NCBI GenBank assembly: GCA_036556545.1
Contig: DATBJF010000060.1
Coordinates: forward strand, 16,548 to 80,547
Length of the DNA: 64,000 nucleotides
From: Candidatus Methylomirabilota bacterium
GTDB taxonomy: Bacteria > Methylomirabilota > Methylomirabilia > Rokubacteriales > CSP1-6
Direction: 5' to 3'
Shown here: positions 14,149-57,467 of the stretch, one piece after another
Position numbering within the stretch: the first letter of the stretch is position 1
How the letters are laid out: the number at the start of each line of letters is the position of its first letter
Program-made: the position numbers and the translations under genes
Notes under the pieces: generated by a model
Databases searched by the model: none
What the model was told of the DNA's origin: nothing
What the model saw: only the letters and a program-made list of their open reading frames with translations

Positions 14149-15168
14149 CTATCGGGAAGCCGGCAATCCTGCCGCGTTCCGCAACGACGCCTCGGCCTCG
14201 GTGATGGGCGAATTGCTGTTCATGACCTCGCGCGCGAGGCTCAGCATCGGATAGCCGCCGCGCGCCTCCTGGGCAAAGCGCCGGGCGAAGTCGCCGGTTT
14301 TGATGTCCGCGAGCACGCGGCGGAAGCGCGTTGCCAGTTCCTCGCGGTCCAGGTCCAGCGTTCGGGTGATCCCGCCGAAGAGCGCCGTCGGTCCGTGATC
14401 CTCGGAGGCTCGAAAGAATCCCGCTCGACGAAAGCCCTCGAACACCGCCTCCATCTCACCCGACATGTACATCTCCATGACGAGCGCCTCCGCCGGAATC
14501 CCGGCCTCGCGCCCGACCTCGAAGGCGGTCATGATGGCCGCGCCCAGCAGCGGGCCCACCGTCTGCTCCACGAAGAGGTCGAGCGTCGCTTCGGTCGCCG
14601 CCGGGGTCTCGATCGCACCCGAGCGCAGCGCGCCCAGCGCACTGGCGAGCCCCAGCATGCGGGCGCGCGCGCGCCCGGTGCGATCCGCCTCGACGCCCAC
14701 GCACGCCCAGAATCCCTGGCCGGCCAGATATCGTTCGCGCGCGACGACGCCGGCCATCCGCGGCGCGACGAGCAGCACATCGACGCTGTGCGGCAGCTCC
14801 ACCAGCTGGAAGGCCAGGCAGTATCCCGACGCAAACGCGATGGCGCTGCCGGCACGCAGGCCGGGAGCGATCTCGGATGCGAAGACCTCGGGGATGACCT
14901 CGTCCGGCAGCAGGACGAAGATCACGTCGTCCATGGCCGCCGTGCCCAGGGACACCACCTCGAAGCCATCGGCTCGCGCGCGCTCGGCATACGCGTCCTG
15001 CCGGTTGCCGATACGAACCTTGACCCCGGAGTCTCTCAGGTTGAGAGCCGCGGTACGTCCGAGATAGCCGTAACCGAGCACCGCCACGGCCTCGCCGGCG
15101 AGCGCCGCGATATCGATGTCGGGACGCCCGCGATGCACGGTCACGGCACAGGAGCCTGGCTCAGGCAT
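14149..15168 (-). CDS. Ketol-acid reductoisomerase-like oxidoreductase (divergent class I KARI)
   Basis: VAVLGYGYLGRTAALNLRDSGVKV (Rossmann motif; canonical is GYGSQGHAHALNLRDSG), LDLFVEQTV (canonical TDLFGEQ, acidic pair kept) and a knotted C-terminal domain. ATG 15168 overlaps the upstream gene by 8 nt. Confidence 0.75.
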   Translation of the reverse strand: MPEPGSCAVTVHRGRPDIDIAALAGEAVAVLGYGYLGRTAALNLRDSGVKVRIGNRQDAYAERARADGFEVVSLGTAAMDDVIFVLLPDEVIPEVFASEIAPGLRAGSAIAFASGYCLAFQLVELPHSVDVLLVAPRMAGVVARERYLAGQGFWACVGVEADRTGRARARMLGLASALGALRSGAIETPAATEATLDLFVEQTVGPLLGAAIMTAFEVGREAGIPAEALVMEMYMSGEMEAVFEGFRRAGFFRASEDHGPTALFGGITRTLDLDREELATRFRRVLADIKTGDFARRFAQEARGGYPMLSLAREVMNSNSPITEAEASLRNAAGLPASR

Positions 15169-17485
15169 GGATCTCCTCCACGATCTTGTGGGCGATGTAT
15201 CGGCCGAGCGCGTAGACGGTGTAGCAGGGGTTCACGCCGAGCGACGTGGGCAGGATCGACGCGTCGGCGACGTAGAGCCCTTCCACGTCCCAGGAGCGCC
15301 CCCGGGAGTCCACCACGTCGCGCCGCGGGTCACCGCCCAGGGCGCAGCCGCCCATGGGATGACCGCTGGTGATCTGGATGCGCTGTTCGGCGACGACGGC
15401 GGGCGAGACGACGGCCGAGATATCGTCTTGCGCGTTGACGATCAATGGATGGTGGCTGTTGTAGAAGACTCGCTGCGCGCCGGCCGCGAACATGATCCGC
15501 GCGCCCGTCCGCAACGCGTCGAGCCATCCGGGATGGTCCTCCTCCGCCAGCTCGTACTCGAATCCGCGGGACGTCACCCGCCCCACGGCCTTGTCGCGGA
15601 ACATCAGCGCCAGCGTCATCGTCTGATTGAAGCGCTGCATCAACGCTTGATGGCTCTCCGCCGACTCATAGGGCGCGAGCTGCGCGTACGCGAGCGGGTG
15701 ATTCACCAGGCCTTCGAGAGCGTAGCGGACGTGGTGGATGGCCGGGTCGGCATTTGCCTGAGCATCGACCTCGTACGTTTTCACGAAGTACCCCATGGGC
15801 GGCGTCGCGGCGGAGGGATAGAGCGGCTCCTCGAACTCCCCGTGCATGCTCACCGTCGCGTGCGTCGAAAACCGATCTCCAATCGCCAGCTCGACGCCCT
15901 TCATCCGCCGCAGGCTCGGCACCCCGCTCCGCATCAGAATGCGCGGCGATCCGAACGGGCCCGCCGCCAGGACGACCCGACGCGCCCGGATCACGACCCG
16001 CTGCCGATCGCCGCCGCGCGAGTCCGTGAGCTGCGCCACCACGCCGGCCACGCGGTGGGTGCGCCCGTCGCGGCCATCGCCGGGAAGCGCCTCGAGGAGC
16101 ACCTCGTCGACCCGGCAGTTCGGCAACACCTGCGCGCCGTGGCGGGCGGCGAGCGGCAGGACCACGTTGAGAGGCGTCAGCTTGCGGTTGTAGCGGCAGC
16201 CGAGATCGCAGAACCCGCAGCCGATGCACTGGTGCGCGTTGCGAATCGTGGGGCCGTGATGGGGAAGACCGAGCGCCTGCACGCCGCGGCGCAAGGCCAG
16301 GTTGCCGCCCGCGATCTGGGATTCGGGCACCGGCCCGATGCGGAGCAGCTTCCGGATCGCCGCCAGGTGGGGCTCGAGGTCCTCGTATCCGAACTGCGCG
16401 CCGTAGCGCTCGCGCCAGTCGCGGAGCACCGGACGGGGCGGCTCGAACGCGAGCGCATGGTTGATGGTGGCGGATCCCCCCACCAGCTTGCCGCTGACCA
16501 CGGCGGTGGACACGGTCGGGATCTCGTAGCCGAAGATCTCGAGCACCGAAAACTCGGTGTCGAAGATGCGCGGCATCATGAGGCGCTCGCGCTGCACGAA
16601 CTCGTGAGGCTCGATGAAGTCGCCCTTCTCGAGAATCAAGATCCGCTGCCCGGTCCTCGCCGCCAGCTCGGCGGCCACGAAGGATCCGCCGGCGCCCGAG
16701 CCGACCACGACGACGTCCGTGGTCAGGATCAGCTGGTCCGAGGCCACGGCGGCGGCGCTTTCCACCCCGGTTGCAACGTCCCCGTGCGAGACCACGCGGC
16801 GGCGAAGCATCGCGATGTTCTCGTCGAGCTCGCGCGCCATGTCGAACGACGTCGCCCCCTCGCGGTCCGCGGCCGTCGTCGCGGGATCTCGCGCCCAGGG
16901 GCCGGGATAGCTCATCATCTTCCACACCACCGTCTCGTTGGTGTAGATCGGCGCCGTCCCGATGAACTTGGCGCCGCTGAAGATGTTGCGCAGGGACCGC
17001 AGCCCACTGTCGCGCAGGAAGAGGAAGTAGCGGTTGGCGTCCTCGGTGTGAAACCGCCGGAACTCGAGCCGCGCCGGCAGGCGGTGGCGCGTGGAGAACG
17101 TCCGCGTGAAGGTGGGCAGGACGTTCAGGAAGTCGAGGAGCAGCTTCATGCTCGACACGAACTCGTCGCCATGGGCGAAGGCGAACGCCGAATAGGCGGC
17201 GACCGGATCGTAGGCGGGGTCCTCGCGCGCCAGCCGGCGCCGCAGCTCCGTGTCCGGCGGGTTGAAGCCGTCGATGATCTTCGCCATGACCTCCCGCTGG
17301 ACGGGGCCGAAGACCGGCGCCGCCTCGCCGAGCTCCAGCCGCTCGATACCCCGGCGCACCACGCTGCATCCGGCCGGCGAGGCGAGCAGCACGGCCGCCG
17401 CCGCCGCGCGGCCGAGGCCGGTGAGGAAGTGGCGCCGATTCATGGCGCGGACGACGTCGGCATCGAAGGCGCGCTGCCCGTTCAC
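15161..17485 (-). CDS. Tat-exported GMC-family FAD oxidoreductase fused to a gluconate-2-dehydrogenase-subunit-3-like N-domain
   Basis: Twin-arginine motif NRRHFLTGLG followed by LLASPAGC. N-domain of about 250 aa (VQREVMAKIIDGFNPPD). FAD motif DVVVVGSGAGGSFVAAELA near residue 258. C-terminal GMC motif SGHPMGGCALGG...LYVADASILPTSLGVNP. GTG start with GGAGGGGAG upstream. Confidence 0.8.
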   Translation of the reverse strand: MNGQRAFDADVVRAMNRRHFLTGLGRAAAAAVLLASPAGCSVVRRGIERLELGEAAPVFGPVQREVMAKIIDGFNPPDTELRRRLAREDPAYDPVAAYSAFAFAHGDEFVSSMKLLLDFLNVLPTFTRTFSTRHRLPARLEFRRFHTEDANRYFLFLRDSGLRSLRNIFSGAKFIGTAPIYTNETVVWKMMSYPGPWARDPATTAADREGATSFDMARELDENIAMLRRRVVSHGDVATGVESAAAVASDQLILTTDVVVVGSGAGGSFVAAELAARTGQRILILEKGDFIEPHEFVQRERLMMPRIFDTEFSVLEIFGYEIPTVSTAVVSGKLVGGSATINHALAFEPPRPVLRDWRERYGAQFGYEDLEPHLAAIRKLLRIGPVPESQIAGGNLALRRGVQALGLPHHGPTIRNAHQCIGCGFCDLGCRYNRKLTPLNVVLPLAARHGAQVLPNCRVDEVLLEALPGDGRDGRTHRVAGVVAQLTDSRGGDRQRVVIRARRVVLAAGPFGSPRILMRSGVPSLRRMKGVELAIGDRFSTHATVSMHGEFEEPLYPSAATPPMGYFVKTYEVDAQANADPAIHHVRYALEGLVNHPLAYAQLAPYESAESHQALMQRFNQTMTLALMFRDKAVGRVTSRGFEYELAEEDHPGWLDALRTGARIMFAAGAQRVFYNSHHPLIVNAQDDISAVVSPAVVAEQRIQITSGHPMGGCALGGDPRRDVVDSRGRSWDVEGLYVADASILPTSLGVNPCYTVYALGRYIAHKIVEEIHA

Positions 17486-17489
17486 CGGC

Positions 17490-18164
17490 CTACTCCCCTC
17501 CCGGCACGGCGAATCGATGCGTGTTGACGATCTGACCGGTCAGCGTCTCGCCAACACGTACGTGGCACTGAACGCAGCGGTTCGTCGTGCTGCCCGAGTC
17601 GATCGGGTAGTGCGTGTCGCGGCCCGCGTGGCAGCCGGTGCACAGATCCGCTCGCTTCGCCGCCGCCTCGCCGAAACGATGCTCGTCGTAGTGACAGGCC
17701 GCACACAGTCGCCCGCCCAGCTCGTTCGACGTCGCGTCTCCGGCGAACCGGCGGCCCTCGGCGGCTGTCACGAGAAAGCGGGCCCGGCGCAACGCCGCCC
17801 GCGCCGCGCGGTCGCCGTCGAGCGGACGACGATCGCGCGAGGCGAAATGCTTGCTCAGGAGCGTCTGCTGGTACTCGGCCTGGTGGCAGCCGCCGCAGCC
17901 GGCATCCGCCACCGGATGGGTGAAGTCGGGATGTCCAGCCGGGCGATGACATTGACCGCAACGGACGCCGCGGGCGCTGTGCTTGCTCGGGGCGTTCGGC
18001 CCGTCCACGTGCGCGGCGTGGCAGGTCTCACAGCGCTCCACGTACACGGCAGGACCGGACACGGATGCCGGACGGGGCCGCTCCGGTGACGATGGCGCCA
18101 GGAAGCAACCGCCCAGCACCGCCGCCAGCGCAACGAGTCGCAGGGTCTCGATGAAGTGCTTCAT
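17490..18164 (-). CDS. Hexaheme c-type cytochrome lipoprotein
   Basis: Six CxxCH motifs (CETCH, CGQCH, CGGCH, CAACH, CTGCH, CVQCH). Signal peptide with lipobox LGGC. Confidence 0.85.
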   Translation of the reverse strand: MKHFIETLRLVALAAVLGGCFLAPSSPERPRPASVSGPAVYVERCETCHAAHVDGPNAPSKHSARGVRCGQCHRPAGHPDFTHPVADAGCGGCHQAEYQQTLLSKHFASRDRRPLDGDRAARAALRRARFLVTAAEGRRFAGDATSNELGGRLCAACHYDEHRFGEAAAKRADLCTGCHAGRDTHYPIDSGSTTNRCVQCHVRVGETLTGQIVNTHRFAVPGGE

Positions 18165-18206
18165 TCCGGGCGCCGATATCCTTTGGGCGATGGCGAGCGA
18201 TCATCT

Positions 18207-18224
18207 ATGGGACGTTGGTCCCAC
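18207..18224 (-). promoter_or_regulatory. Palindromic box ATGGGAC-GTTG-GTCCCAC (GGAC-N4-GTCC family), copy 1 of a tandem pair
   Basis: Read directly from the sequence. About 45 nt upstream of the cytochrome c start (18164). Shares the 13-mer TCTATGGGACGTT with 51314-51326. Confidence 0.5.
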
Positions 18225-18247
18225 CGCGCCGTCCGCGCCGAGCGCGA

Positions 18248-18265
18248 ATAGGACGTTGGTCCCAG
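18248..18265 (-). promoter_or_regulatory. Palindromic box ATAGGAC-GTTG-GTCCCAG, copy 2 of the tandem pair
   Basis: GGACGTTGGTCCC is identical to copy 1 and sits 41 bp away. It lies in the 234-bp divergent region between the cytochrome operon and the FixJ-type regulator. Confidence 0.5.
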
Positions 18266-18398
18266 CACTATTGCAGGAGCCCGGGTGACCGTGATAGACG
18301 CCGCTATGCTCCGCCGCTTCCCCGCTGTGGTGCGTGGGACGCGAGCACTGAGGTGCCGGTCGACCGTCCGTGTGCGACGAGTGACGAGGGGGCCCGCC

Positions 18399-19031
18399 GT
18401 GAGCGACGCGATCGTCTACGTCGTCGATGATGATGCGGCCATCAGCCGCTCGCTGGCCCGGCTGATCCGCTCGGTCGGCCTCGACGCAGTCACCTTCCCA
18501 TCGGCTCAGGCGTTCCTGGACCATCCGCGGTCGACCGGCGCCGCGTGTCTGGTGCTCGACGTGCGCATGCCGGGCCTGGGCGGGCTCGATCTCCAGACGC
18601 GACTCGGAGACGTCCGCAAGACGCTGCCGATCATCTTCATCACCGGGCACGGAAACGTCCCGACCAGCGTGCGCGCCATGAAGAGCGGCGCCGTCGACTT
18701 TCTACAAAAGCCATTCAACGACGACGAGCTGATCGCGGCCATCCACCGCGCGCTGGCGCTCAGCCGGCAGGCGCACGTCGAAGCGGCCGAGCGCGGCGAG
18801 ATCGAGCGCCGCGTCCGCACCCTGACCCCGCGGGAGCGCGAGGTGATGGACCGCGTGGTCAAGGGGCTGCTGAACAAGCAGATCGCGGCCGACCTCGGCG
18901 CCGCCGAGAAGACCGTGAAGGTCCATCGTGGACGCGTCATGCAGAAGATGCAGGCGAGCTCCGTCGCCGACCTCGTTCACATGGCCGAGCGCATCGGCGT
19001 GTCGACGGGATCGTCGTCCTCGAAGGTGTAG
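18399..19031 (+). CDS. FixJ/NarL-family response regulator (REC + LuxR-type HTH)
   Basis: IVYVVDDDAAISRSLARLIRS...LVLDVRMPGLGGLD...IIFITGHG...FLQKPF (REC). LTPREREVMDRVVKGLLNKQIAADLGAAEKTVKVHRGRVMQKM (LuxR HTH). GTG 18399 with GAGGGGG upstream. Confidence 0.9.
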   Translation: MSDAIVYVVDDDAAISRSLARLIRSVGLDAVTFPSAQAFLDHPRSTGAACLVLDVRMPGLGGLDLQTRLGDVRKTLPIIFITGHGNVPTSVRAMKSGAVDFLQKPFNDDELIAAIHRALALSRQAHVEAAERGEIERRVRTLTPREREVMDRVVKGLLNKQIAADLGAAEKTVKVHRGRVMQKMQASSVADLVHMAERIGVSTGSSSSKV

Positions 19032-19041
19032 GTCGCCCTGC

Positions 19042-19084
19042 GACCTTAGTCCGACCCGGTCGCCCGAAGGTCCAATAGTCCGCC
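19042..19084 (+). promoter_or_regulatory. Two degenerate copies of the box (GACCTTAGTCCGAC and GGTCCAATAGTCCGCC)
   Basis: One-mismatch (19042-19055) and looser (19069-19084) versions. They lie 65-110 nt upstream of the DUF3300 ATG. A GGTCGC-cct-GCGACC hairpin (19031-19045) directly follows the regulator stop codon. Confidence 0.3.
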
Positions 19085-19149
19085 GCGGAGCACGATCGTA
19101 GGCTGGCCTGCGTCTCATCATCCGGCGTCGACGCGCGGGAGGATTCGTC

Positions 19150-20667
19150 ATGACGTCGCTGCAGCGAATCGTCGTTTGGCTCGTCCTGGCGATGGCACTG
19201 TGTCCGGCTCCGTCGTCGGCGCAGGACGCACCGCGGTTCAAGCCCGAGGAGCTCGAGCAGCTCGTGGCGCCCGTCGCCTTGCATCCCGATCCGCTGCTGG
19301 TCCAGGTGCTGATGGCGTCCACGTACCCGCTCGAAGTCGTGCAGGCCGCCCGCTTCGTCAAGGACAACCCGAATCTGAAGGGCGATCAGCTGAACGAGGC
19401 GCTCAAGCAGCACCAGTGGGACGACAGCGTGAAGTCGCTCACCACCTTCCCGCAGGTCCTCACGATGATGAACGACAAGCTCGACTGGCTTCAGAAGCTG
19501 GGCGACGCCTTCCTCGGCCAGCAGCAGGAGCTGATGGCCGCCGTCCAGCGTCTGCGTGCGCGGGCACACGAGTCGGGCCAGCTCAAGAACACGGCGCAGC
19601 AAAACGTCGTCGTGGAGCCGGCGGCGGCAGTTCCCGCGGCGCCGCCCCCGGGCGCCGCACCGCCCGCGTCCGCGCAGGCACCGGCGGCACCGGCGCCGGC
19701 CGGCCAGGCCGCCGCGCCGTTCGTGCAGGCCCAGCCGGCGCCCGCCACGGTGCAGGTCCAGCAGGCCCCGGCCACGGTGCAGGTCGTGCAGGCGCCGCCC
19801 ACGGTCATCAAGATCGAGCCGGCGAATCCCCAGGTCGTCGCGGTGCCGAGCTACGACCCCATGGTCGTCTACGGCGCCTGGCCGTATCCGGCCTATCCGC
19901 CGTACTACCCGTACCCACCTGGATATTTCGCGGCCGGCGCGATGATGTTCGGCGCCGGAGTCGCCGTCGGTGCGGCGCTGTGGGGCGACGCCGACTGGAA
20001 CGGCGGCGAGGTCAACATCAACAACAGCAATGCCAACAACTTTTCGAACAACGTGAACAACTCGAACGAGGCGCGGAACCGTGTCGAGCATCGTAACAAG
20101 AGCGGCGGCTCGGGCACGGGAGGCCAGAACCGTGGCAAGTGGCAGCACAACCCGGAGCACCGCAAGGGCGTGCAGTACCGCGACAAGGGCACGCAGCAGC
20201 GGTTCAACAAGACCGGGCCCGCCAACGCGCAATCACGCGAGGCGTTCCGTGGACGAAGCGGTCAGGGCGGTGATTTCAATCGCGCCGCGCAGCAGGGCGG
20301 GCTCGGTCAGCAAGGGCGCGGTCAGGCCGGAGTCGCCGATCGCGCAGGCGGTGGTCAGAGCGGGATCGGGGCGGATCGAGCAGGCGGGGTCGATCGAGGA
20401 GCCGCTCAGGCGTCGCCACGGAGCGGCGGCTTCGGTCAGGGCGGCGGACAGGGTCGCCAGCCAGGCGCGTTCGAAGGCATGAGCGGTGGCCGGGATACGC
20501 AAAGCTTCAGCAATCGAGGCCGCGAGAGCCGGGAGAGCTTCAACCGTTCCAGCGGCGGTAGCCGCAGCGGAGGCGGTGGTGGCGGTGGAAGTCGCGGCGG
20601 CGGCGGCGGCGGTGGCGGTGGTCGCAGCGGCGGTGGTGGTCGCGGAGGCGGAGGAGGACGTCGATGA
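19150..20667 (+). CDS. DUF3300 domain-containing secreted protein with Pro/Ala linker and Gly/Arg tail
   Basis: Signal peptide, then the DUF3300 hallmark LEQLVAPVALHPDPLLVQVLMASTYPLEVVQAARF...LKQHQWDDSVKSLTTFPQVL. GGGAGG ribosome-binding site before the ATG. Confidence 0.85.
   Translation: MTSLQRIVVWLVLAMALCPAPSSAQDAPRFKPEELEQLVAPVALHPDPLLVQVLMASTYPLEVVQAARFVKDNPNLKGDQLNEALKQHQWDDSVKSLTTFPQVLTMMNDKLDWLQKLGDAFLGQQQELMAAVQRLRARAHESGQLKNTAQQNVVVEPAAAVPAAPPPGAAPPASAQAPAAPAPAGQAAAPFVQAQPAPATVQVQQAPATVQVVQAPPTVIKIEPANPQVVAVPSYDPMVVYGAWPYPAYPPYYPYPPGYFAAGAMMFGAGVAVGAALWGDADWNGGEVNINNSNANNFSNNVNNSNEARNRVEHRNKSGGSGTGGQNRGKWQHNPEHRKGVQYRDKGTQQRFNKTGPANAQSREAFRGRSGQGGDFNRAAQQGGLGQQGRGQAGVADRAGGGQSGIGADRAGGVDRGAAQASPRSGGFGQGGGQGRQPGAFEGMSGGRDTQSFSNRGRESRESFNRSSGGSRSGGGGGGGSRGGGGGGGGGRSGGGGRGGGGGRR
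20551..20664 (+). repeat. Low-complexity GGY/CGY codon run (RGG-type tail, in-CDS)
   Basis: Encodes SGGSRSGGGGGGGSRGGGGGGGGGRSGGGGRGGGGGRR at the C-terminus of the DUF3300 protein. Confidence 0.9.
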
Positions 20668-21650
20668 GCGCGCGATTTCGATTGGTGATCCTCGTCACGG
20701 CGGCGCTGCTCGACTGGCAGTCCGGATCGCCTGTCGGCGCGCAGACATCACCGCCGGCCGCCGAGACCCCCACGACGAAGCCGGCGTCACCGAAGCCCGC
20801 CGTCGTGGCGCCCAAGCGGTTCGCTTCGGCGGAGGAGGCCGCGCAGGCGTTCGTCACTGCGCTACGCGCCGACGACACGAAGGCGCTGCTCACGATCCTC
20901 GGCAGCGAGGCCCGGTCGCTCGTCTCTTCCGGCGATCCGGTCGCCGATCGGCAGGCGCGCGCGCAGTTCGTGCAGTGGTACGACACCGCCAGCAGGCTGG
21001 AGGCCTCTGGCAACACGACGGTCATCCGCATCGGTGATGACTGGCCGTTCCCGATCCCGCTGGTGAAGGACGGTGAGCGCTGGCGCTTCGACGTCCGGCG
21101 CGGTCGCGAGGAGATCATCGCGCGGCGGGTCGGTCGCAACGAGCTGCACACGATGCAGACCTGTCTCGCATACGTCGACGCGCAGCGCGAGTACTACGAG
21201 GCGGATCGAAACGGCGACGGGATCCTGGAATATGCGCAGCAGTTCAAGAGCGCTCCCGGCAAGCGCGACGGTCTCTACTGGCCCACACGGCCCGACGAGC
21301 CGCCGAGTCCCCTCGGCGATCTGGTCGTCAGCGCTCACGCCAGGGGATATCGGCTTGCCAAGGAAGGCGCGCCGACGCCCTTCAACGGCTACCTCTTCCG
21401 CATCCTCACGGGCCAGGGCCCGGCCGCGCCGGATGGTGCCTACGACTACATCGTGCGCGGTCACATGATCGCGGGCTTCGGCCTGGTCGCCTTCCCCGCG
21501 CAGTATGGCGTCTCCGGCGTCATGACGTTCATCGTCAACCACGACGGCATCGTGTACCAGAAGGATCTCGGACCGACGACGGGCACGATCGCCGCTGCGA
21601 TGCGTCGCTTCAATCCCGACAAGAGCTGGACCAAGGTCGACGTTCCCTGA
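20664..21650 (+). CDS. DUF2950 domain-containing secreted protein
   Basis: ATG overlaps the upstream stop (ATGA). Typical DUF2950 segments TCLAYVDAQREYY, GLYWPT, FNGYLFRILTGQG, GFGLVAFPAQYGVSGVMTFIVNHDGIVYQKDLG. Confidence 0.85.
   Translation: MSARFRLVILVTAALLDWQSGSPVGAQTSPPAAETPTTKPASPKPAVVAPKRFASAEEAAQAFVTALRADDTKALLTILGSEARSLVSSGDPVADRQARAQFVQWYDTASRLEASGNTTVIRIGDDWPFPIPLVKDGERWRFDVRRGREEIIARRVGRNELHTMQTCLAYVDAQREYYEADRNGDGILEYAQQFKSAPGKRDGLYWPTRPDEPPSPLGDLVVSAHARGYRLAKEGAPTPFNGYLFRILTGQGPAAPDGAYDYIVRGHMIAGFGLVAFPAQYGVSGVMTFIVNHDGIVYQKDLGPTTGTIAAAMRRFNPDKSWTKVDVP
21629..21638 (+). promoter_or_regulatory. Exact decamer GACCAAGGTC inside the last 22 nt of the DUF2950 CDS
   Basis: Read directly (ctGGACCAAGGTCGACgttccctga). 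It is the only exact copy with no downstream gene in the sense orientation, and may be a coding coincidence (W-T-K-V). Confidence 0.25.
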
Positions 21651-23849: not shown

Positions 23850-23867
23850 ATCGGACCTTGGTCTCAG
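23850..23867 (-). promoter_or_regulatory. Box ATCGGACC-TT-GGTCTCAG (exact decamer GACCTTGGTC 23854-23863)
   Basis: Read directly. Lies 31 nt upstream of the ATG at 23895 (+) and about 150 nt upstream of the minus-strand start at 23706. Confidence 0.5.
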
Positions 23868-23894: not shown

Positions 23895-24281
23895 ATGGCG
23901 TCGTACGCCGATCAAATGGCGCCCTCGGTCGAGCCGATCACCGCGTCCGCACGCTACCGTCGTTCCATGGTGCCGCTGCGCTGGGTCAACGACGTCCGCC
24001 ACTACGACGTGACGCCGGCCACCATCGAGTACGACATCGACCTCGACGCCTTCTTCGTCGCCCGCGCGGACATCCGGTCTCCCTCGCAGGATCATCGGCT
24101 CAGCCTGGTCGTCAGCGTGACGCTCCGAGACCTCACGGCCAATCAACTCACGCTGGAGGACGCGCTTGTCCGCGGCCGGGATCTCCTGGACCGGCTCATC
24201 GCCGCCCACCGATCGGCCGTCGACTCCATCGGCGGGCACTCGATCTGGGTCTTCGATTTCATCGGGGCTCGTCTCAGATGA
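23895..24281 (+). CDS. Hypothetical protein (128 aa)
   Basis: Balanced amino-acid composition and strong G/C bias at third codon positions. No motif recognised. Confidence 0.5.
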   Translation: MASYADQMAPSVEPITASARYRRSMVPLRWVNDVRHYDVTPATIEYDIDLDAFFVARADIRSPSQDHRLSLVVSVTLRDLTANQLTLEDALVRGRDLLDRLIAAHRSAVDSIGGHSIWVFDFIGARLR

Positions 24282-24368
24282 TCGCTTTTGTCCCCGGTTG
24301 CGGGCTGGCACAATGACACCGTTGGGGTAGTAACGGCGTCGTCCGGGTGGCGCGGGCCGCTCCGGTGA

Positions 24369-24382
24369 GACCAAGGTCTGAT
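24369..24382 (+). promoter_or_regulatory. Box GACCAAGGTCTGAT (exact decamer 24369-24378)
   Basis: Read directly. Lies about 50 nt upstream of the ATG at 24434, in sense orientation. Confidence 0.5.
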
Positions 24383-24433: not shown

Positions 24434-27088
24434 ATGCCCGAATGCGTCGCGGTAGCGCCGCCGGCCATCGGAGCCCGCGGCGGAAGAGAGTGGCTGATCG
24501 ATCTGGCCGCGGCCGGCGACCGTGCGCTCTGCGGCGGCAAGGCCGCCGGACTGGCGCAGCTGCAGCGCGCCGGGTTCTCTGTTCCCGACGGCATCTGCCT
24601 GACCATCGAGCTTTGCCGGGCGGCGCTCCGGCAGCTCGATGTCGCCGCCCGAGTCGAGGCGCTCGCCGCCGATCCGCATATCGACCCGCAGACGCGCTCC
24701 GACCGGCTCGCCGACATACGCCGGCTCGTGGAAACGGCGCCCCTGCCCCCGAGTATCGTGGACGCCATCCATGGCGCCGTCATGACCGTGCGAACGGACT
24801 GGAACGGCATGCTGGCGGTCCGGTCGTCGGCGGTCCTCGAAGATCATCCCGACGCCTCGCACGCGGGCATCCACGCCAGCTTCGTCGGTCAGTACGCGGC
24901 CCCAGCGGTCGTGGCGCGGGTCAAGAGCTGCTGGGCATCGCTGTGGAGCGAGCGCGCGTGGGCCTACCGCGAGCGCCTCGGGATCCCGCACGCCGACGCC
25001 GCCATGGCCGTGATCGTGCAGCGATTCGTGGCGGGTGGTCGCGCAGGGGTGGCGTTCTCGGCCGATCCCCTGAGCGGCGACTCGGCCACGGTCGTCATCG
25101 AAGCCGTGCGGGGAACCGGCGAGGCCATCGTCGGCGGTACGCTCACCCCCGAGCAGTATCGCGTCACCATCAGCGGTGAGACGACCGCCGTGCACGCGGA
25201 GCGTTCCTCCGCACGCCCGGTGCTCGGCGGCGCCGAGATCCGCACGCTCGCGCGAGTGGTCAAGCGCGTGGAGCACGCGCTCCAGCAACCGGTCGACGTC
25301 GAGTGGGTCTACGACGGCGACACGCTGTGGCTCGTTCAGAGCCGGCCGATGCGTCGAGGCGCGCCGCGGCGCGAAGAGACGCTGTGGACGCGGGCCAATC
25401 TGAAGGAGGTCTTCCCCGACCTTCCGAGTCCTCTGGCGGCCTCCTACGTCGAGGTCGCACTGAATCGAATGTTTCGCGAATACCACTCCGCGCAAGGGTA
25501 CGCGGTGCGGGCGGACACCGGCCTCGTCCGTGTCTTCCGCGGCCGGCCGTATCTCAATCTCACCCTCATGACCCACATGACCGTCGTCCGTGGCGGCAAC
25601 CCGAGCATCGTGGCGCGGCTCTTCGGCGGGGCCATGCCGTCCGGTGCGCCGGTGGAGCGCCCGGTGTCCCGCCCGGTCATGGACCTGCGGCAGGGGGCCC
25701 GGCTGGTGCGCGAGCTGCTCACGACCATTTTCCTCACGCCTCGCCGTGCCGAGCGACTGTTCCGGACGATGCGCCGGCGGGCGAAGCGCTACGCGGCGGT
25801 TCCGCTGGAGCGGCTCGACGATGCGGCGGTGAGCCAGCACCTGATCCGCCTTGCCAATACGCTGCTCCATCCGGCGACGCTCCGCCGCCTCCACGAGATC
25901 GTGTCCGCGCAGTCGCGCGCTTACATGATCCTCGAGCGGCTCCTGGCGGCATGGATCCCCGCCGAGGCCGGCCGGCTGCTCGCGCAGCTCGTGACCGGCC
26001 TCGGCACGCTGCCCAACACGCGGCTGACGTACCGCCTCGTCGCGCTCAGCGAGGTGGCCCGGGCGGAGCCACGCGTCGAGGCGTTTCTCATGGAGGCGCG
26101 AGACCGCGAGGCGTTACGGACGTACCCGGCGGTCCTCGGGGGCACCCGGTTCCTCGCCGACCTCGACGAGGTCCTGCGCGAATTCGGTCACCGGGGTCCA
26201 TTCGAGTCGGACGTGATGTCGCCGCGATTCGAGGAGCAGCCGGAGCTGCTGCTGGAGATCATCCAGACGTACCTGCGCGCCCCCGCCCTCGAGAATCCCG
26301 CGCGTCACGAAGCCTATCGCCGCCGTCTGCGGGAAGGCGCCGAGCGTGAAGTCCGCGTGGCGCTCAGAGACAGGCCGTGGCTCACGTTCGTGCTCCAATC
26401 GACGATCCTCTCGGTCGTCGGACGCGCGCTCCAGCGACTGGTGGCGCAGCGTGACGAGAACCGCCACGTGACCACGTTGCTGGTGGCCCACCTGCGCCGG
26501 GTCGCGCTGGAGATCGGGCGCCGCGCGGCGCGCAAAGGCTCGTTCGCCGCCGCGGACGACGTGTTCTTCGTGCGGTGGGACGAGTTTGCCGGTGTCCTCA
26601 CCGGTCCCCGCCGCGACTGGCGCACGCTGGTCGCCGAGCGCCGCCGCGAGCGAGCGCGCAACGAGACCGTCAGCGCGCCGGATCTCCTGCGGGGCGACGA
26701 GTCCGCCGACGATGATGCGCCTCACGGTCTGGGCGGATTCGGTGTGAGTCCCGGCCGGGTCACGGGCACGGTGAAGATCATCAAGTCCCCGGCCGATCTG
26801 CGTGCCCTCGGCGGAGAGATCGCCGTCGTGTCGGCGATCGAGCCGAGCCTGACCTCGATCTTTCCGCTCGTCACCGGACTGATCGCCGAGATCGGCGGCC
26901 TGCTGAGCCACGGGGCCATCCTCGCGCGTGAATACGGATTGCCGGCCGTGGTGAACGCCAAGGACATCACTCGCCGATTGCACGATGGCGATCGGATCGA
27001 GCTGGACGGGACGAGCGGCCGGATCCGTCTGCTAGGACGCGAGTCCACCGCCGGCAACGGCGCCTGCACGGTGGCGAACGAGCAGTGA
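24434..27088 (+). CDS. PEP-utilising / pyruvate-water-dikinase-family enzyme with rifampicin-phosphotransferase-like architecture
   Basis: N-terminal PPDK_N ATP-grasp (GGKAAGLAQLQRAGFSVPDG...VRSSAVLEDHPDASHAGIHASF), a central region of about 450 aa, and a C-terminal swivel His domain (GVSPGRVTGTVKII...GGLLSHGAILAREYGLPAVV). 884 aa. Confidence 0.8.
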   Translation: MPECVAVAPPAIGARGGREWLIDLAAAGDRALCGGKAAGLAQLQRAGFSVPDGICLTIELCRAALRQLDVAARVEALAADPHIDPQTRSDRLADIRRLVETAPLPPSIVDAIHGAVMTVRTDWNGMLAVRSSAVLEDHPDASHAGIHASFVGQYAAPAVVARVKSCWASLWSERAWAYRERLGIPHADAAMAVIVQRFVAGGRAGVAFSADPLSGDSATVVIEAVRGTGEAIVGGTLTPEQYRVTISGETTAVHAERSSARPVLGGAEIRTLARVVKRVEHALQQPVDVEWVYDGDTLWLVQSRPMRRGAPRREETLWTRANLKEVFPDLPSPLAASYVEVALNRMFREYHSAQGYAVRADTGLVRVFRGRPYLNLTLMTHMTVVRGGNPSIVARLFGGAMPSGAPVERPVSRPVMDLRQGARLVRELLTTIFLTPRRAERLFRTMRRRAKRYAAVPLERLDDAAVSQHLIRLANTLLHPATLRRLHEIVSAQSRAYMILERLLAAWIPAEAGRLLAQLVTGLGTLPNTRLTYRLVALSEVARAEPRVEAFLMEARDREALRTYPAVLGGTRFLADLDEVLREFGHRGPFESDVMSPRFEEQPELLLEIIQTYLRAPALENPARHEAYRRRLREGAEREVRVALRDRPWLTFVLQSTILSVVGRALQRLVAQRDENRHVTTLLVAHLRRVALEIGRRAARKGSFAAADDVFFVRWDEFAGVLTGPRRDWRTLVAERRRERARNETVSAPDLLRGDESADDDAPHGLGGFGVSPGRVTGTVKIIKSPADLRALGGEIAVVSAIEPSLTSIFPLVTGLIAEIGGLLSHGAILAREYGLPAVVNAKDITRRLHDGDRIELDGTSGRIRLLGRESTAGNGACTVANEQ

Positions 27089-27619: not shown

Positions 27620-27677
27620 CGATTCGAGTATCGGCCGCGCACCGCGGATTGACAAGCTTCCCGAGAGGGGGCGATAG

Positions 27678-28649
27678 ATGACCAAGGTCTGGCGGGGCGG
27701 GCTGGTGGTCCTGGGCCTGGTGTCCGTGGGGTCCCTCATCGCCGCCACCGGCGTGACGGCCGTCCTGTCGGCCATGGCGACGCTGTCCTGGCGGATCGTC
27801 GTGATCGTGGTGTGCCCGGCCATCGTCGTGGTTGCGCTCGATACCCTGGCCTGGCGGTTCGCCTTCGAGCGGCTCCCTCCCTTTTACCGTCTCTTTGGCG
27901 TGCGCCTGGCCGGCGAGGCACTGAACACGGGCACCGCCTCCATCGGCGGCGAGGCCGCCAAGGTCTACCTCCTGCAGCCGGAGGTCCCGGCCGTCGAGGC
28001 CTCGGCCGCGACGCTGGTGGGAAAGACCGGCATCACGATCGCCCAGGTCCTCTTCCTGGGCGTCGGTCTGGCGGTGGCCCTCTCGTGCCTGGAGCCATCG
28101 CCCCTGGTGCTCACCGCAGCCTTCGTCGCCCTGGCGCTGGAGGCGATGGCCGTGGCCGCCTTCGTCCTCGTGCAGTGCGCCGGTGTCGTCGGGCGCACGC
28201 TCCGCCTCCTGCGACGGTGGGCCTGGCACGCTGCCGCCGACCGTCTCCAAGACCTGGTCCGCCTCGATCATTCGCTGGCCACGTTCTACGGGCGCCGGCG
28301 GGGACGCTTCGCGACCTGCGTCGCTCTCCATCTCGCCGCCTGGATCGTGGGCAGCCTCGAGGTCTATCTGGTGCTGCACTGGCTCGGCGTCGGCGTATCG
28401 TTCCCGATGGCCCTCTTCATCGACGCGGCCGGGTCGGCCATCAGCTTCGTAGGATTCGCCGTTCCGGCGCGACTCGGCGTGCTGGAAGGGGGGTACATGT
28501 CCGTATTCGCGGCGCTCGGCCTGGCTTCCGGAGTCGGCCTGTCCTTTGCGCTGATCCGCCGCCTGCGCCTTCTCGTCTGGAGCCTGCTCGGCGTCGTCGT
28601 GCTCATGGCCTATCAGGCGACGGCCACGCCACGCGCGTCGGCAACGTGA
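27678..28649 (+). CDS. Flippase-like membrane protein (lysylphosphatidylglycerol-synthase TM region / UPF0104 family)
   Basis: About eight hydrophobic helices. The segment RLAGEALNTGTASIGGEAAKVYLL is typical of this family. Start is ATG 27678 or GTG 27705. Confidence 0.75.
   Translation: MTKVWRGGLVVLGLVSVGSLIAATGVTAVLSAMATLSWRIVVIVVCPAIVVVALDTLAWRFAFERLPPFYRLFGVRLAGEALNTGTASIGGEAAKVYLLQPEVPAVEASAATLVGKTGITIAQVLFLGVGLAVALSCLEPSPLVLTAAFVALALEAMAVAAFVLVQCAGVVGRTLRLLRRWAWHAAADRLQDLVRLDHSLATFYGRRRGRFATCVALHLAAWIVGSLEVYLVLHWLGVGVSFPMALFIDAAGSAISFVGFAVPARLGVLEGGYMSVFAALGLASGVGLSFALIRRLRLLVWSLLGVVVLMAYQATATPRASAT
27680..27689 (+). promoter_or_regulatory. Exact decamer GACCAAGGTC (followed by TGG) at the annotated start of the flippase-like gene
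   Basis: Read directly (gatagatGACCAAGGTCTGgcg). Lies 61 nt upstream of the PAP2 start on the other strand. If this is an operator, the real start of the plus-strand gene may be GTG 27705. Confidence 0.45.
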
Positions 28650-31600: not shown

Positions 31601-32046
31601 AGACGATGGCACGGCTGACGCTGCGGCAGCACTGGGAGAAGCGGACGCCGGCCGAGCGAGACGAGTTCACGCGGCTCTTCGCCGAGCTCTTCCGGCACGC
31701 GTATCTGACGCGGCTGTCCCTCGTGGACGCCAACGCCTTCCGCTACGAGGGCGACACCATCGCCGGCGAGCAGGCGACGGTGAACACCCAGGTCGTCACC
31801 AAGCGCGGCAGTGTCATCGGGGTCGCCTACGGCCTCGCCCGTTCCGGCGGACGTGGCTGGCGCGTGCACGACGTGCGCGTCGAGGGGATCAGCCTGCTGG
31901 ACAACTACCGCACACAGTTCGCGGCCATCATCGCCCGGTCGTCGTACGAGGCGCTGGTCGAGCGCCTCCGGGCCCGCGTCCGCGAGCACGGCTCCGGCTC
32001 GTCCGCCAGCCGACCCACAGCACGCCAAGGAGCGTCAGGGTCATGA
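28663..32046 (+). CDS. MMPL/RND-superfamily lipid exporter (HpnN-like) with in-frame C-terminal MlaC/Ttg2D-like module
   Basis: Two 6-TM bundles with large periplasmic loops (VVLLVFRQVRKPLVMLFVLQVSLAWSLGLIAL; MFLGTLWTIGFMNAVGLSFNLANVWALPLIIGAAAEYGLN). GTG start with GGAGA upstream. The frame continues without a stop into the MlaC-like part. Confidence 0.85.
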   Translation: MSRLLVAVLRLSTARPALTAALCLAAAAAALVYASSALTFETSSVRLLPPHRVYVQEFDRYLREFGELNDIVIVVESNEPEQAKDYAARLASLLSGPPVRATRVTYRIDPDQFEGRALLYLSLERLTALRDAVERHREFLGAYAADPTLATLVASIDREMVRRLAGRFVDLGIEEASASSFDPAFVDTLLASIGERLTSAAARPASPWGALISTGHDERSGYFTSRDGKLLFVLVEPRREAGNFTDNKEIIASIRRTIADLRADYPAVSAGVTGTPALSNDEMLTAFRDSSVATAASCLATLLVVLLVFRQVRKPLVMLFVLQVSLAWSLGLIALTVGHLTVFSVMFIALFIGVGVDYGIYLLFRYQEELGIARDPRAALDTAVARAGPGIVFAALAAAGTFAVLMLTEFRGIVEFGFIGALSIVMALVAMLTLFPALLLVLDRRSPRPGPVLAGAQHTGRPAASLLERATRHTRVILGAAALATGYSLWAVAGVGFDYNRLNLQAKGSEAVVWEKKILDSGRSAFPALASAGSLDELRAKQAAFGRLSTVSEVVSVLRAIPTEQTQKIAIIGELAPTVAPVRVADARDAEPDKLRAALLGLRKRLALAIREAGPDGPSATLRSADSRAEDLLGRLANISPEARGRLSTIQRDFRADFDVKLRQFQDNLAPTPVTVDVLPEEVRRKFMGRTGTFLMQITPAVNTWNREGVEQFVRELRTVDAAVTGSPVISYEASRLMEMAYFDGTLYAGLLVIGLAAMMLRRPRDTVLAVLPMFLGTLWTIGFMNAVGLSFNLANVWALPLIIGAAAEYGLNVALRDREALEHGGPRLAQSTVMAVVLNGLTTVAGFSSLMFARHQGMFGLGLVLTVGAVAGLAAALLVLPVLLRLFSRAPAPVRINSGLVEASMTGKRSCVVLVTLLSLAAVGSVGARAAGAGEPTERVRSVVDRLYRLASSPAPTVEDRRQRDVAAAEVMEQLFDWQTMARLTLRQHWEKRTPAERDEFTRLFAELFRHAYLTRLSLVDANAFRYEGDTIAGEQATVNTQVVTKRGSVIGVAYGLARSGGRGWRVHDVRVEGISLLDNYRTQFAAIIARSSYEALVERLRARVREHGSGSSASRPTARQGASGS
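31378..32046 (+). other. MlaC/Ttg2D-like phospholipid-binding module with its own ribosome-binding site, ATG and signal peptide, nested in frame in the MMPL ORF
   Basis: GTGGAGG lies 6 nt before ATG 31378. MTGKRSCVVLVTLLSLAAVGSVGARAAGA looks like a signal peptide. MlaC-type core: MEQLFDWQTMARLTLRQHWEKRTPAERDEFTRLFAELFRHAYLTRL. Confidence 0.55.
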
Positions 32047-32446
32047 CGACGGCGTTCGGCCAGGACGCCAGCGTCCAGCGCCCCGCATAGGACCACCCCC
32101 ACTCGGAGAGCGGCCAGAAATAGCGGATGGGCAATCCACCGGTGCCCACCAGGTCCAGGGCCAGGTGGAGGTGGAAGCTCAGCAGCCCGAGTACGGCTGC
32201 CGTCCCGCGCTCGTCCGCGAGCGCCAGCGTGAGCGCGACCCACGCCAGCACGAACACGAGGCCGTGGCCAACGGCGCGGTGCGCCGCCACGTAGGCGTCC
32301 TGGCTCCAGAGGATCCCCACGCCGTCGAAGTCCGGGAGAACACCGGCCAGCGTGATGAGCCAGCGGTCCCGCGCCGATCGGGCGCGAAGGCTGGCCACGA
32401 TCCAGCTGAGACCGATGTGAGTCAGGAAGTGCAGCCCCGTCAGCAT
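31928..32446 (-). CDS. Membrane-bound metal-dependent hydrolase (YdjM/DUF457 family)
   Basis: MLTGLHFLTHIGLSWIV...LAGVLPDFDG...HRAVGHGL...SFHLHLALD pattern of His/Asp on short TM helices. The 3' tail overlaps the convergent ORF by 119 nt. Confidence 0.7.
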   Translation of the reverse strand: MLTGLHFLTHIGLSWIVASLRARSARDRWLITLAGVLPDFDGVGILWSQDAYVAAHRAVGHGLVFVLAWVALTLALADERGTAAVLGLLSFHLHLALDLVGTGGLPIRYFWPLSEWGWSYAGRWTLASWPNAVVMTLTLLGVLWVGWRTSRSRARGRGPGGARPAPRTTTGR

Positions 32447-32489: not shown

Positions 32490-32507
32490 TATCGGACCAA
32501 GGTCCGA
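32490..32507 (+). promoter_or_regulatory. 18-bp near-perfect palindrome ATCGGACC-AA-GGTCCGAT (exact decamer 32494-32503)
   Basis: Read directly. Best copy of the family. Lies in the divergent region between the YdjM-like gene (start 32446) and the decarboxylase operon (ATG 32592). Confidence 0.55.
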
Positions 32508-32534
32508 TGGCAGGGATGAGGCGTGCACAGCACA

Positions 32535-32568: not shown

Positions 32569-32591
32569 GCTCATCGACGAAGGAGATCGAC

Positions 32592-44126: not shown

Positions 44127-44204
44127 GGCGTCATCCTCTTTCGTCACGGCCGAACCATGCGGTGTGCGGACTATTCCGTCGTAACGCGGAGGCGCCGAGA
44201 CGAC

Positions 44205-44220
44205 CATTGGACGTTGGGCG
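44205..44220 (-). promoter_or_regulatory. Box variant CATTGGACGTTGGGCG (GGACGTTGG sub-family)
   Basis: Read directly. Lies about 80 nt upstream of the DUF3141 start and 15 nt downstream of the AI-2E gene stop. Confidence 0.35.
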
Positions 44221-51313: not shown

Positions 51314-51332
51314 TCTATGGGACGTTCGGTGT
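51314..51332 (-). promoter_or_regulatory. Box variant TCTATGGGACGTTCGGTGT
   Basis: The 13-mer TCTATGGGACGTT is identical to 18204-18216. The right half is degenerate, with a 1-nt insertion. Lies about 60 nt upstream of the MFP start (51256). Confidence 0.35.
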
Positions 51333-57097: not shown

Positions 57098-57111
57098 GGG
57101 ACACCTCTCCT

Positions 57112-57417
57112 TCAAGGCCACGCCGCCACGAATGCATCCATCACGACCAGGGATGGCTGTGCACGACACGAGGTCAGCAGCCGATCGATGGCTTTCCCCG
57201 CGACTTCGGCGTCGAAGCCCGCCGTGCGGCGACGCCCGTCCATCACGCCCGTCAGATAGATGAGAGCGCGCTCCTGGCGCCCCGCCTCGAGGCCGAGGAG
57301 CTCCGCGCACGTGAACCGGCTGAAGTCGAGCCGGGTCGGCATCGCGTCGAGACCGGCCGAGGCCGGCGAGATCGGGATCGCGACCAGGAGCAGGACGCAC
57401 GCGAGCACCGCCCTCAT
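57112..57417 (-). CDS. HdeA/HdeB-like small periplasmic protein
   Basis: Signal peptide MRAVLACVLLLVAIPISPASA. FTCAELL ... SCRAQP spacing resembles the HdeA disulfide pair (WTCEDFL ... ACTQD). 101 aa. Confidence 0.45.
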   Translation of the reverse strand: MRAVLACVLLLVAIPISPASAGLDAMPTRLDFSRFTCAELLGLEAGRQERALIYLTGVMDGRRRTAGFDAEVAGKAIDRLLTSCRAQPSLVVMDAFVAAWP

Positions 57418-57453: not shown

Positions 57454-57467
57454 ATCAGACCTTGGTC
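57454..57467 (-). promoter_or_regulatory. Box ATCAGACCTTGGTC (exact decamer 57458-57467) straddling the histidine-kinase stop codon
   Basis: Read directly. Lies about 40 nt upstream of the HdeA-like start. In mRNA sense it reads GACCAAGGTCTGATT, and a second TCTGATT follows 16 nt later. Confidence 0.5.

Follow-up and report, generated by a model that had tools for sequence, protein, structure and literature searches.

StyR and TodT act at 16-bp palindromic operators, ATAAAC-N4-GTTTAT, several of them per promoter, in an xxAC-N4-GTxx design with a spacer of 4 nt, and mycobacterial DosR has several boxes in divergent promoter regions together with a box at its own operon. The 20-bp DosR box consensus has been printed as TTSGGGACTWWAGTCCCSAA (PMC2275270, PMC2703886), the form in which a first-pass annotation of the DNA studied here had given it, and DosR contacts the bases of its box through Lys179, Lys182, and Asn183 (PMC4082495, PMC5861037). 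The published sites of FixJ read TAAGTAATTTCCCTTA and, from systematic evolution of ligands by exponential enrichment (SELEX), GTAGTTTCCC and GTAMGTAG (PMC4999443). Our subject is a stretch of 64,000 nucleotides from a Candidatus Methylomirabilota bacterium (contig DATBJF010000060.1), called the window throughout, in which two palindromic boxes (18207–18265) stand in tandem between a cytochrome c operon and the gene of a FixJ/StyR-like response regulator (18399–19031, plus strand). We consider it very probable, because of sequence conservation, association with one clade of regulators, and covariation with the recognition helix, that these boxes are operator sites for the adjoining regulator.

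Two palindromes in the divergent region

Both boxes fall inside the 234-bp gap that separates the two divergent gene sets, and Pfam places the cytochrome operon on one side of it and the regulator on the other, as first described. The 13-mer GGACGTTGGTCCC occurs exactly at 18210–18222 and at 18251–18263, 41 bp apart, with no further copy in the window at zero or one mismatch. A repeat finder lengthened the copies to the 17-mers ATGGGACGTTGGTCCCA (18207–18223) and ATAGGACGTTGGTCCCA (18248–18264), whose starts are likewise 41 bp apart. The window itself reads tctATGGGACGTTGGTCCCACcgcg at 18207–18224 and gaATAGGACGTTGGTCCCAGcac at 18248–18265, and the extension of the first copy to ATGGGAC-GTTG-GTCCCAC, already proposed in the first-pass annotation, matches this sequence. 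The inverted-repeat finder reported no repeat here, the arms of 5–7 nt being below its seed length.

Box 1, ATGGGACGTTGGTCCCAC (18207–18224), is a strong 18-bp palindrome and a putative operator; a matrix derived from sites outside the window gives it 21.5 bits, and its centre precedes the ATG of the cytochrome c gene by 51.5 bp. Box 2, ATAGGACGTTGGTCCCAG (18248–18265), scores 17.7 bits with the same matrix and is centred 142.5 bp upstream of the GTG start of the regulator. Three nucleotides past box 2 there is a TATTGC hexamer (18269–18274, plus strand), which may serve the regulator gene as a promoter element.

To compare loci, homologous regulator genes were collected by a scan with one genome per species, which returned 80 loci (numbered here with the prefix L). 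A search of all loci for GGAC-N4-GTCC showed that the matches whose spacer is rich in A/T and whose flanks are AT-x gather at the loci closest to our regulator and at several from deltaproteobacteria, ATTGGACCAAAGTCCAAT being an example. Thirteen sites, none of them from the window, then gave a symmetrised 18-bp matrix, ATKGGAC-YWWR-GTCCMAT. The five best scores of this matrix in the window fall at 32491 (22.5 bits), 18207 (21.5), 18248 (17.7), 24365 (15.7), and 23850 (15.4), and all five sites are wholly non-coding and upstream of gene starts, although a rough GC3-based call assigns at least 83% of the window to coding sequence. Over 20 shuffles of the window the best score per shuffle ranged from 7.9 to 16.2 bits, with 15.4 bits or more in a single shuffle.

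The 13-mer as such is not a dispersed repeat in these 64 kb, because a loose count allowing up to three mismatches gives 34 occurrences where 32.3 are expected, which is chance level. The motif family is detectable only by way of the 18-bp matrix and of a decamer. This core decamer, GACCWWGGTC, a near variant of the box decamer GACGTTGGTC, occurs six times against 0.17 expected, a count reached in none of 100 shuffles, and the broader GACBWWVGTC occurs 16 times against 2.6 expected. GACCWWGGTC is presumably the "decamer family" that the first-pass annotation had treated separately, and its proposal of a wider motif family sharing the core is borne out by the matrix sites and by the over-represented decamer. 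A chance origin of the boxes is excluded.

The 35-fold excess of the decamer, the presence of window decamers at the 3' ends of genes (21629 and 57458), and the position of a box directly after the regulator stop codon in many loci could also mark a dispersed repeat of the repetitive extragenic palindromic (REP) type, or RNA hairpins acting as terminators or as structures of 5' untranslated regions. Each box can indeed form a hairpin of 5–7 bp with −8 to −11 kcal/mol. These energies, however, are ordinary by z-score (−1.3 to −1.9 for the boxes; −0.15 to −1.15 when the region is taken as a whole), a scan of 18100–18450 gave no terminator-like site with a T-run, and an Rfam search of 17900–19300 gave no match. 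Boxes 1 and 2 lie between divergent starts, where a terminator would be needless, and across phyla it is the sequence itself that is kept, beyond its ability to pair. With the five best window sites all upstream of gene starts and the exact 13-mer in just two copies, a repeat or hairpin origin is very improbable. Within the 64 kb, the boxes sit in promoter regions and are not a dispersed repeat unrelated to promoters, an outcome that would have refuted the first-pass reading. The reading as an RNA element was rejected, the hairpins being modest and not significant against shuffles.

The arrangement is conserved in close relatives. One Methylomirabilota metagenome-assembled genome (L001) is syntenic with the window (regulator 80% identical, cytochrome c 65%, GMC oxidoreductase 79%) and has the order cytochrome–GMC, a gene for a GAF/PAS kinase of 1073 amino acids (aa), the regulator, a receiver-only gene, DUF3300, and DUF2950; an identical ATGGGACGTTGGTCCCAC lies between its cytochrome and kinase genes. 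At L081 (regulator 85% identical), ATGGGACGTTGGTCCCAT is found between a ketol-acid-reductoisomerase (KARI)-like gene and a kinase–regulator–receiver operon. Alignment of the window with L001 and L081 leaves the 17-mer ATGGGACGTTGGTCCCA unchanged in all three, against a mean column identity of about 63% for the intergenic DNA. A weaker second box follows at +44 in L001 (GTCAGACTATGGTCGTAC) and at +39 in L081 (ATGAGACCTTGGTCGTAG), and [T/C]ATTGC recurs 2–3 nt past the second box in all three, as well as in L199. At this last locus (regulator 92% identical), box 2, TATTGC, and the sequence beyond are exactly kept.

Gene tables were also compared for three contigs of close relatives. The P0007 contig (88%) has the same kinase-less order as the window, and the KARI-like gene adjoins the boxes there, as it does in L081. 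Boxes were looked for, and are present, upstream of orthologous regulator/cytochrome pairs. The gene orders of L001 and L081, set beside that of P0007, indicate that the tandem box module is ancestral in this group and that the lineage of the window lost the adjoining kinase and receiver genes. A separate change is seen in L199, the closest of the relatives compared at the DNA level, which keeps box 2 and the regulator gene but lacks box 1 together with the cytochrome side. Its likeness to the window sets in about 10 nt upstream of box 2, and the sequence before that point is replaced by the C-terminal end of an IS110-like transposase gene (noted at positions 1–135 of this locus), with a stop codon at 117–119, about 27 nt upstream of box 2 (which starts near 147).

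A regulator clade and one residue of its recognition helix

The product of 18399–19031 is the sole GerE-type regulator in the window. It consists of a receiver (REC) domain (PF00072, 2.9e-25, residues 6–115) and a GerE helix-turn-helix (PF00196, 3.4e-21, residues 141–196) with the recognition helix AEKTVKVHR, and is the proposed binder of the boxes. Alignment with StyR and FixJ shows an intact phospho-acceptor pocket, namely DDD at 10–12, D54 (VLDVRMPG), T82 (FITGHG), and K104 (QKPF). Its matches in the PDB are StyR (1yio, 2.5e-55, residues 5–198), Bradyrhizobium FixJ (5xso, 3.3e-50), and DosR (3c3w, 1.7e-9), and the nearest named family is the NCBIfam FixJ equivalog NF006900, with 224.9 bits under a cut-off of 255. 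These matches place the regulator in an uncharacterised FixJ/StyR-like clade with the helix A-E-K-T-V-K. Metagenomes hold 7,948 homologues at E ≤ 1e-40, and among the 120 best homologues listed none bears a name more specific than, for example, "FixJ family two-component response regulator" or "response regulator".

The boxes follow this clade closely. A box of at least 15 bits is present in 18 of the 20 loci whose regulator has E-K-T-x-K and in 2 of the 60 others; for the looser x-K-T class the table is 18/7/2/53 (Fisher's p = 2e-10). Boxed loci carry the helix E-K-T-[VI]-K, and the unboxed paralogues carry E-I-T-V-K, E-L-T, E-V-T, L-Q-T, and the like. Exact GGAC-YWWR-GTCC occurs in 8 of the 20 loci with a Lys (E-K-T-x-K) regulator, none of which has exact ATAC-YWWR-GTAT, and the 46 loci with Ile, Val, Leu, or Gln at that position show the reverse, with 0 and 15, respectively.

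This sister palindrome, ATAC-YWWR-GTAT, was noted at L010, L023, L025, L035, L039, L040, L045–L048, L057, L061, L063, L065, L074, L076, and L077. It resembles the boxes described here in being an 18-bp palindrome with a YWWR spacer and in its placement after the regulator stop codon (L023, L025, L035, L039, L040, L063); it differs in having ATAC rather than GGAC half-sites and Ile, Val, Leu, or Gln rather than Lys at the position of DosR Lys179. Two bases per half-site change along with one helix residue, as would be expected of a protein that reads those bases directly. There appears to be a one-residue code, in which Lys at the DosR-179 position would specify GGAC half-sites and Ile, Val, Leu, or Gln would specify ATAC.

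The loci with boxes span Methylomirabilota, Gemmatimonadota, Acidobacteriota, Desulfobacterota, Planctomycetota, Verrucomicrobiota, and Alphaproteobacteria. At L003, L004, L009, L011, L013, L015, L037, L051, L053, L066, and L072 the box stands right after the regulator stop codon, 610–650 bp from the start of the gene, and L026 has a sub-threshold match of 12.0 bits at this offset. At L001, L002, L051, L066, and L072 a box lies upstream of the kinase–regulator operon. Next after the post-stop box there is usually a gene for a receiver-only protein of about 125 aa, and the usual order in the relatives is kinase, regulator, box, and receiver-only gene. This order, with the receiver of about 125 aa, was seen in several phyla (L004, L007, L011, L013, L015, L037, L051, L053, L072, L081, L083–L087). 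The window has lost it at the regulator locus; a related receiver-only protein (Pfam Response_reg), 45% identical to the product of the receiver gene after the L001 regulator, is encoded 42 kb off, at 61194–61607 on the minus strand. The conserved gene order suggests a receiver that is induced by the regulator and serves as a feedback element or a phosphate sink. The receiver-only gene recalls FixT of Caulobacter, a feedback inhibitor.

In the mechanism we propose, every 18-bp box would be occupied by a dimer of phosphorylated regulator, whose two GerE helix-turn-helix domains would each take one ATGGGAC half-site. Of the helix lysines, the one at the DosR Lys179 position would read the GG step, and that at the Lys182 position the conserved AC/GT core. 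Boxes 1 and 2 would control the cytochrome c/GMC-oxidoreductase/KARI-like operon and, as autoregulation, the regulator's own gene. Both of these roles had been suggested from the layout, and conservation, the independent matrix, and the clade association argue for them. The adjoining kinase having been lost, the regulator would receive its phosphate from a kinase encoded elsewhere. A candidate partner, inferred from likeness, is the 1003-aa PAS/HisKA/HATPase sensor kinase at 57455–60466 (minus strand), which is FixL-like in NCBIfam (332.9 bits, below the cut-off) and 39% identical to the kinase adjoining the regulator in L001.

On balance, we favour a broader view in which the locus belongs to a widespread, uncharacterised three-gene signalling module composed of a PAS/GAF kinase, a FixJ-like regulator, and a receiver-only protein. 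The operator would stand between the regulator and receiver-only genes, and soil and sediment bacteria from at least seven phyla would share this arrangement. The module would follow the one-residue code, its Lys clade having reached or retained the DosR solution on a FixJ/StyR scaffold. Its regulon would be of a stress type and include the periplasmic DUF3300 and DUF2950 proteins, a flavoprotein dehydrogenase linked to a cytochrome, an efflux pump of the resistance-nodulation-division (RND) type, and an amino-acid decarboxylase together with its exchanger.

The likeness of the boxes to that of DosR, which the first-pass annotation had stressed, holds for the core, as GGGAC-N4-GTCCC is identical in the two and the central spacer is mostly A/T in both. 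It does not extend to the flanks, which are ATG…CAT/CAC in the window and AT-K / M-AT in the family but TTS…SAA in DosR, and the spacer is GTTG in the window and YWWR in the relatives. Likewise, the regulator is of DosR's NarL/LuxR kind in possessing a GerE-type domain by Pfam, but its PDB matches make it FixJ/StyR-like rather than DosR-like. A gapless alignment with DosR, whose sequence was checked against PDB entries, shows A-E-K-T-V-K to be identical, Lys179 and Lys182 included, whereas the position of Asn183 is occupied by Val. As in DosR, there are several boxes in a divergent region and a box at the regulator's own gene.

Could the locus be a true DosR/DevR dormancy system, with a regulator orthologous to the one for hypoxia in mycobacteria and with the corresponding regulon? 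The shared core and helix, the tandem boxes in a divergent promoter region, the GAF and PAS domains of the relatives' kinases, and a CBS-pair protein nearby would fit such a system. The far better E-values for StyR and FixJ than for DosR, the NCBIfam assignment nearest to FixJ, the Val at Asn183, and the other box flanks do not. Nor do the kinases of the relatives, which are of the HisKA type (PF00512) with PAS/GAF and often a periplasmic ABC_sub_bind domain, in contrast to the HisKA_3/haem-GAF design of DosS and DosT, or the box-linked genes (RND efflux, decarboxylase, DUF3300/DUF2950), which are unlike the dormancy regulon. Orthology to DosR is extremely improbable. Judged from helix and boxes, the regulator would be DosR-like at the level of the core contacts but lies outside the DosR family, and the evidence points to no hypoxia, oxygen, or redox signal specifically.

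With FixJ, the regulator shares the REC and GerE architecture and, in its relatives, PAS-containing partner kinases. It differs in its helix, FixJ reading S-P-R-T-[VI]-E where the clade of the window reads A-E-K-T-V-K, and no FixL-type kinase adjoins it, the kinases of the relatives being composed of ABC_sub_bind, GAF, PAS, and HisKA. No fixK-type target was found among the genes examined beside boxes. Because the published FixJ sites are unrelated to the ATKGGAC-YWWR-GTCCMAT box, these comparisons indicate that the regulator is not FixJ in the functional sense. StyR (1yio) is the best structural relative, and its operators and those of TodT have the 4-nt spacer and general design seen here. 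Their outer half-site, however, is AAAC and not GGAC, StyR has Val (AEVTVKVHR) where the clade of the window has the specificity lysine, and the target genes and sensor kinases of StyR and TodT are others.

Other binders and the direction of control

The 17-mer ATGGGACGTTGGTCCCA has 110 exact matches in metagenomes. The next base is T, which completes the palindrome, in 76 of the 109 matches with enough flank, and because this happens in DNA of 65% G+C, most of the matches are real boxes. A second strong box lies 16–94 bp away in 11 of them, and the tandem spacings of 37–45 and 84–94 bp show no fixed phase. A Pfam census of 99 box-adjacent open reading frames (ORFs) on these contigs returned RND membrane-fusion proteins, HWE/HisKA_2 kinases, SnoaL/DUF4440, and others, with no single function.

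Most of the 110 contigs carry no regulator homologue near the box, so the linkage is not obligatory. Together with the kinase-less state of the window regulator, this could mean that the boxes are operators of another factor, encoded elsewhere, and that the neighbouring regulator is merely one of its targets. Yet the kinase–regulator pair is the sole constant neighbour of the box across phyla, while the other flanking genes vary. The GGAC/ATAC switch, moreover, tracks a single residue of the recognition helix, which is hard to explain with an unrelated binder, and AEKTVK matches DosR, the one protein known for GGGAC-N4-GTCCC. Another factor as the binder is, in our judgement, improbable.

Several observations weigh against the adjoining regulator as the binder of these boxes or temper the support for it. 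No kinase gene adjoins it in the window. On a neighbour-joining tree the E-K-T sequences form approximately one group, which makes the association a clade-level correlation in which the 80 loci are not independent. The matrix sites were picked in the same loci as the association count, the independent evidence being the window scan and L081–L199. About nine sites within 64 kb are many for the operator of a regulon. The tandem spacing is 39, 41, and 44 bp in L081, the window, and L001 and 37–45 bp in the metagenome tandems, and since it varies, cooperative binding on one face of the helix is not supported as a conserved feature; the earlier description of the spacing as about four helical turns suits the 41 bp of the window, a distance that the relatives do not keep, so that strict same-face phasing lacks support. 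A sigma-70 consensus scan of 18100–18450 recognised no promoter. Finally, several boxes are flanked, on the side nearer the gene, by a conserved ATAGA, which could represent a −10-like element that the box overlaps, an arrangement that would favour repression.

As for the direction of control, we lean towards activation with positive autoregulation, because most box centres are found 50–190 bp away from a start codon and because FixJ, StyR, TodT, and DosR, the relatives that have been characterised, act chiefly as activators. The regulator might instead bind as a repressor at boxes that overlap core promoters, phosphorylation or a signal relieving or imposing the repression. In the window, L081, L002, and the RND loci, boxes are directly adjoined, towards the gene, by conserved −10-like ATAGA/TATTGC sequences, and at 27650–27689 a TTGACA-N18-GATAGAT is followed immediately by a decamer at a start codon. 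The second box is weaker than the first in L001 and L081, as would fit a low-affinity site that limits autoinduction. The distances to the start codons nevertheless suit upstream activator sites better, as does the record of the relatives, and no putative −10 element passes the sigma-70 consensus scan. We regard repression as a tentative alternative, the less likely of the two modes but a serious one.

If the boxes are operators of the regulator, they would supply an operator, and hence a computable regulon, for a large FixJ-family clade abundant in soil metagenomes. The covariation would amount to a testable one-residue rule for helix-turn-helix domains of the NarL/FixJ type (Lys-GG; Ile/Gln-AT), usable to predict or re-engineer sites, and DUF3300, DUF2950, the cytochrome/GMC dehydrogenase operon, and the RND pump would be tied to one signalling pathway. 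No new regulatory principle would follow, since two-component regulators typically have palindromic operators, autoregulation, and divergent promoters. New here are the candidate cross-phylum regulon and the candidate one-residue specificity rule; the type of gene switch itself is ordinary. In the literature, with few subscription journals covered, we found no relevant account of the box strings, of a FixJ-type regulator with a GGGAC palindrome, or of DUF3300/DUF2950. The sister ATAC palindrome turned up once, the string TTtaTAcCTAGgTAtaAA being listed as predicted motif 48, with no assigned factor, in a Shewanella cis-regulatory map (PMC2532739).

Candidate regulon and neighbouring genes

By its boxes, the wider regulon would take in DUF3300–DUF2950, a gene of 128 aa, a small secreted protein, an enzyme resembling phosphoenolpyruvate (PEP) synthase and rifamycin phosphotransferase, YdjM, a decarboxylase with a transporter, the RND efflux operon, and a gene of 515 aa. 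Right after the regulator stop codon, an eroded box, CTGCGACCTTAGTCCGAC (19038–19055, 9.9 bits), lies upstream of the DUF3300 and DUF2950 genes (19150–21650, plus strand, by Pfam). Its orthologues are CTGGGACCTTGGTCCGAT in L199, which is near-perfect, and ATGGGACCTTGGTCCGAT in L083–L086, which is perfect, scores 24.8 bits, and lies about 87 bp upstream of DUF3300. A half-site 21 bp past the eroded box, GGTCCAATAG (19059–19076, 8.4 bits), is kept as AAGGTCCCATAG in L199. Given the strong box before the orthologues in L001 and L083–L086, DUF3300–DUF2950 is a probable target operon.

The best-scoring box of the window, ATCGGACCAAGGTCCGAT (32491–32508, 22.5 bits), is a perfect palindrome. Its neighbours by Pfam are YdjM (31928–32446, minus strand) and, on the other side, an Orn/Lys/Arg decarboxylase and, after it, an Asp-Al_Ex transporter. 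Two of the metagenome matches, at L123 and L153, place the exact box ahead of decarboxylase homologues (62–65% identical). The decarboxylase ORF is listed from GTG 32523; an AAGGAG at 32580–32585 precedes ATG 32592, which is probably the start, and the box centre is 92.5 bp upstream of this ATG.

Two further boxes have scores among the five best. The first, ATCGGACCTTGGTCTCAG (23850–23867, 15.4 bits), lies between the gene of the small secreted protein (ATG 23706, minus strand) and the 128-aa gene (23895–24281, plus strand). The second, GTGAGACCAAGGTCTGAT (24365–24382, 15.7 bits), is centred 60.5 bp upstream of the PEP-synthase/rifamycin-phosphotransferase-like gene at 24434–27088. The product of the latter, an 884-aa PEP-utilising enzyme, scores 319.7 bits as a rifamycin-inactivating phosphotransferase and 339.8 bits with PEP synthase models, all below the cut-offs.

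Upstream of the RND efflux operon, the 13-mer TCTATGGGACGTT is exactly where it had been reported, at 51314–51326. As an 18-bp site (51314–51331) it has one intact ATGGGAC half and one mutated half and scores 4.8 bits with the matrix. The operon consists, by Pfam, of a membrane-fusion protein (49910–51256) and an AcrB-type pump (46732–49905), both on the minus strand. Homologues of both genes are found on ten metagenome contigs, preceded each time by a complete, like-oriented box (CAACGTCCCATAGA); these loci read CAATGGGACCAACGTCCCATAGA where the window, on the same strand relative to the operon, reads ACATACACCGAACGTCCCATAGA. The full boxes at the RND homologues indicate that the copy at 51314 is an orthologous box with one half eroded.

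Another reported copy, GGACGTTGG at 44209, is present in the sequence, but it abuts the start codon of the gene at 41838–44207 and scores 7.2 bits, which is background beside shuffle maxima of 7.9–16.2. It was rejected as a box, and the metagenome loci lend it none of the support that they give to the copy at 51314. A weak box of 12.3 bits with a perfect decamer, ATCAGACCTTGGTCGTAC (57454–57471), overlaps the stop codon of the kinase at 57455–60466 and lies 54 bp upstream of the 515-aa gene (55853–57400, minus strand). Homologues of this gene adjoin exact boxes in three of the metagenome matches, L114, L146, and L170.

The divergent operon on the far side of box 1 lies on the minus strand. Its first gene (17490–18164) encodes a multihaem cytochrome c lipoprotein (Pfam Cytochrome_C7 and c3_2, paired CXXCH), its second (15161–17485) a 774-aa GMC-family flavoprotein oxidoreductase (GMC_oxred_N and GMC_oxred_C) extended at its N-terminus by about 250 aa, and its last (14149–15168) the KARI-like protein (KARI_N and KARI_C). 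This operon (14149–18164) is of unusual make-up and is kept in L001 and in the P0007 and P0028 contigs.

The distance from DUF2950 to the receiver and M48-peptidase genes is about 40 kb in the window (21650–61190) and about 1 kb in L001, which suggests that this segment, holding most of the additional boxes, was inserted or rearranged relative to L001. The near-consensus, promoter-like TTGACA-N18-GATAGAT (27650–27689) ends at the ATG of a gene of the LPG_synthase_TM family (27678–28649), and a perfect decamer, GACCAAGGTC, overlaps codons 1–4 of the same gene. Its transcript may be leaderless, with a putative operator at +1.

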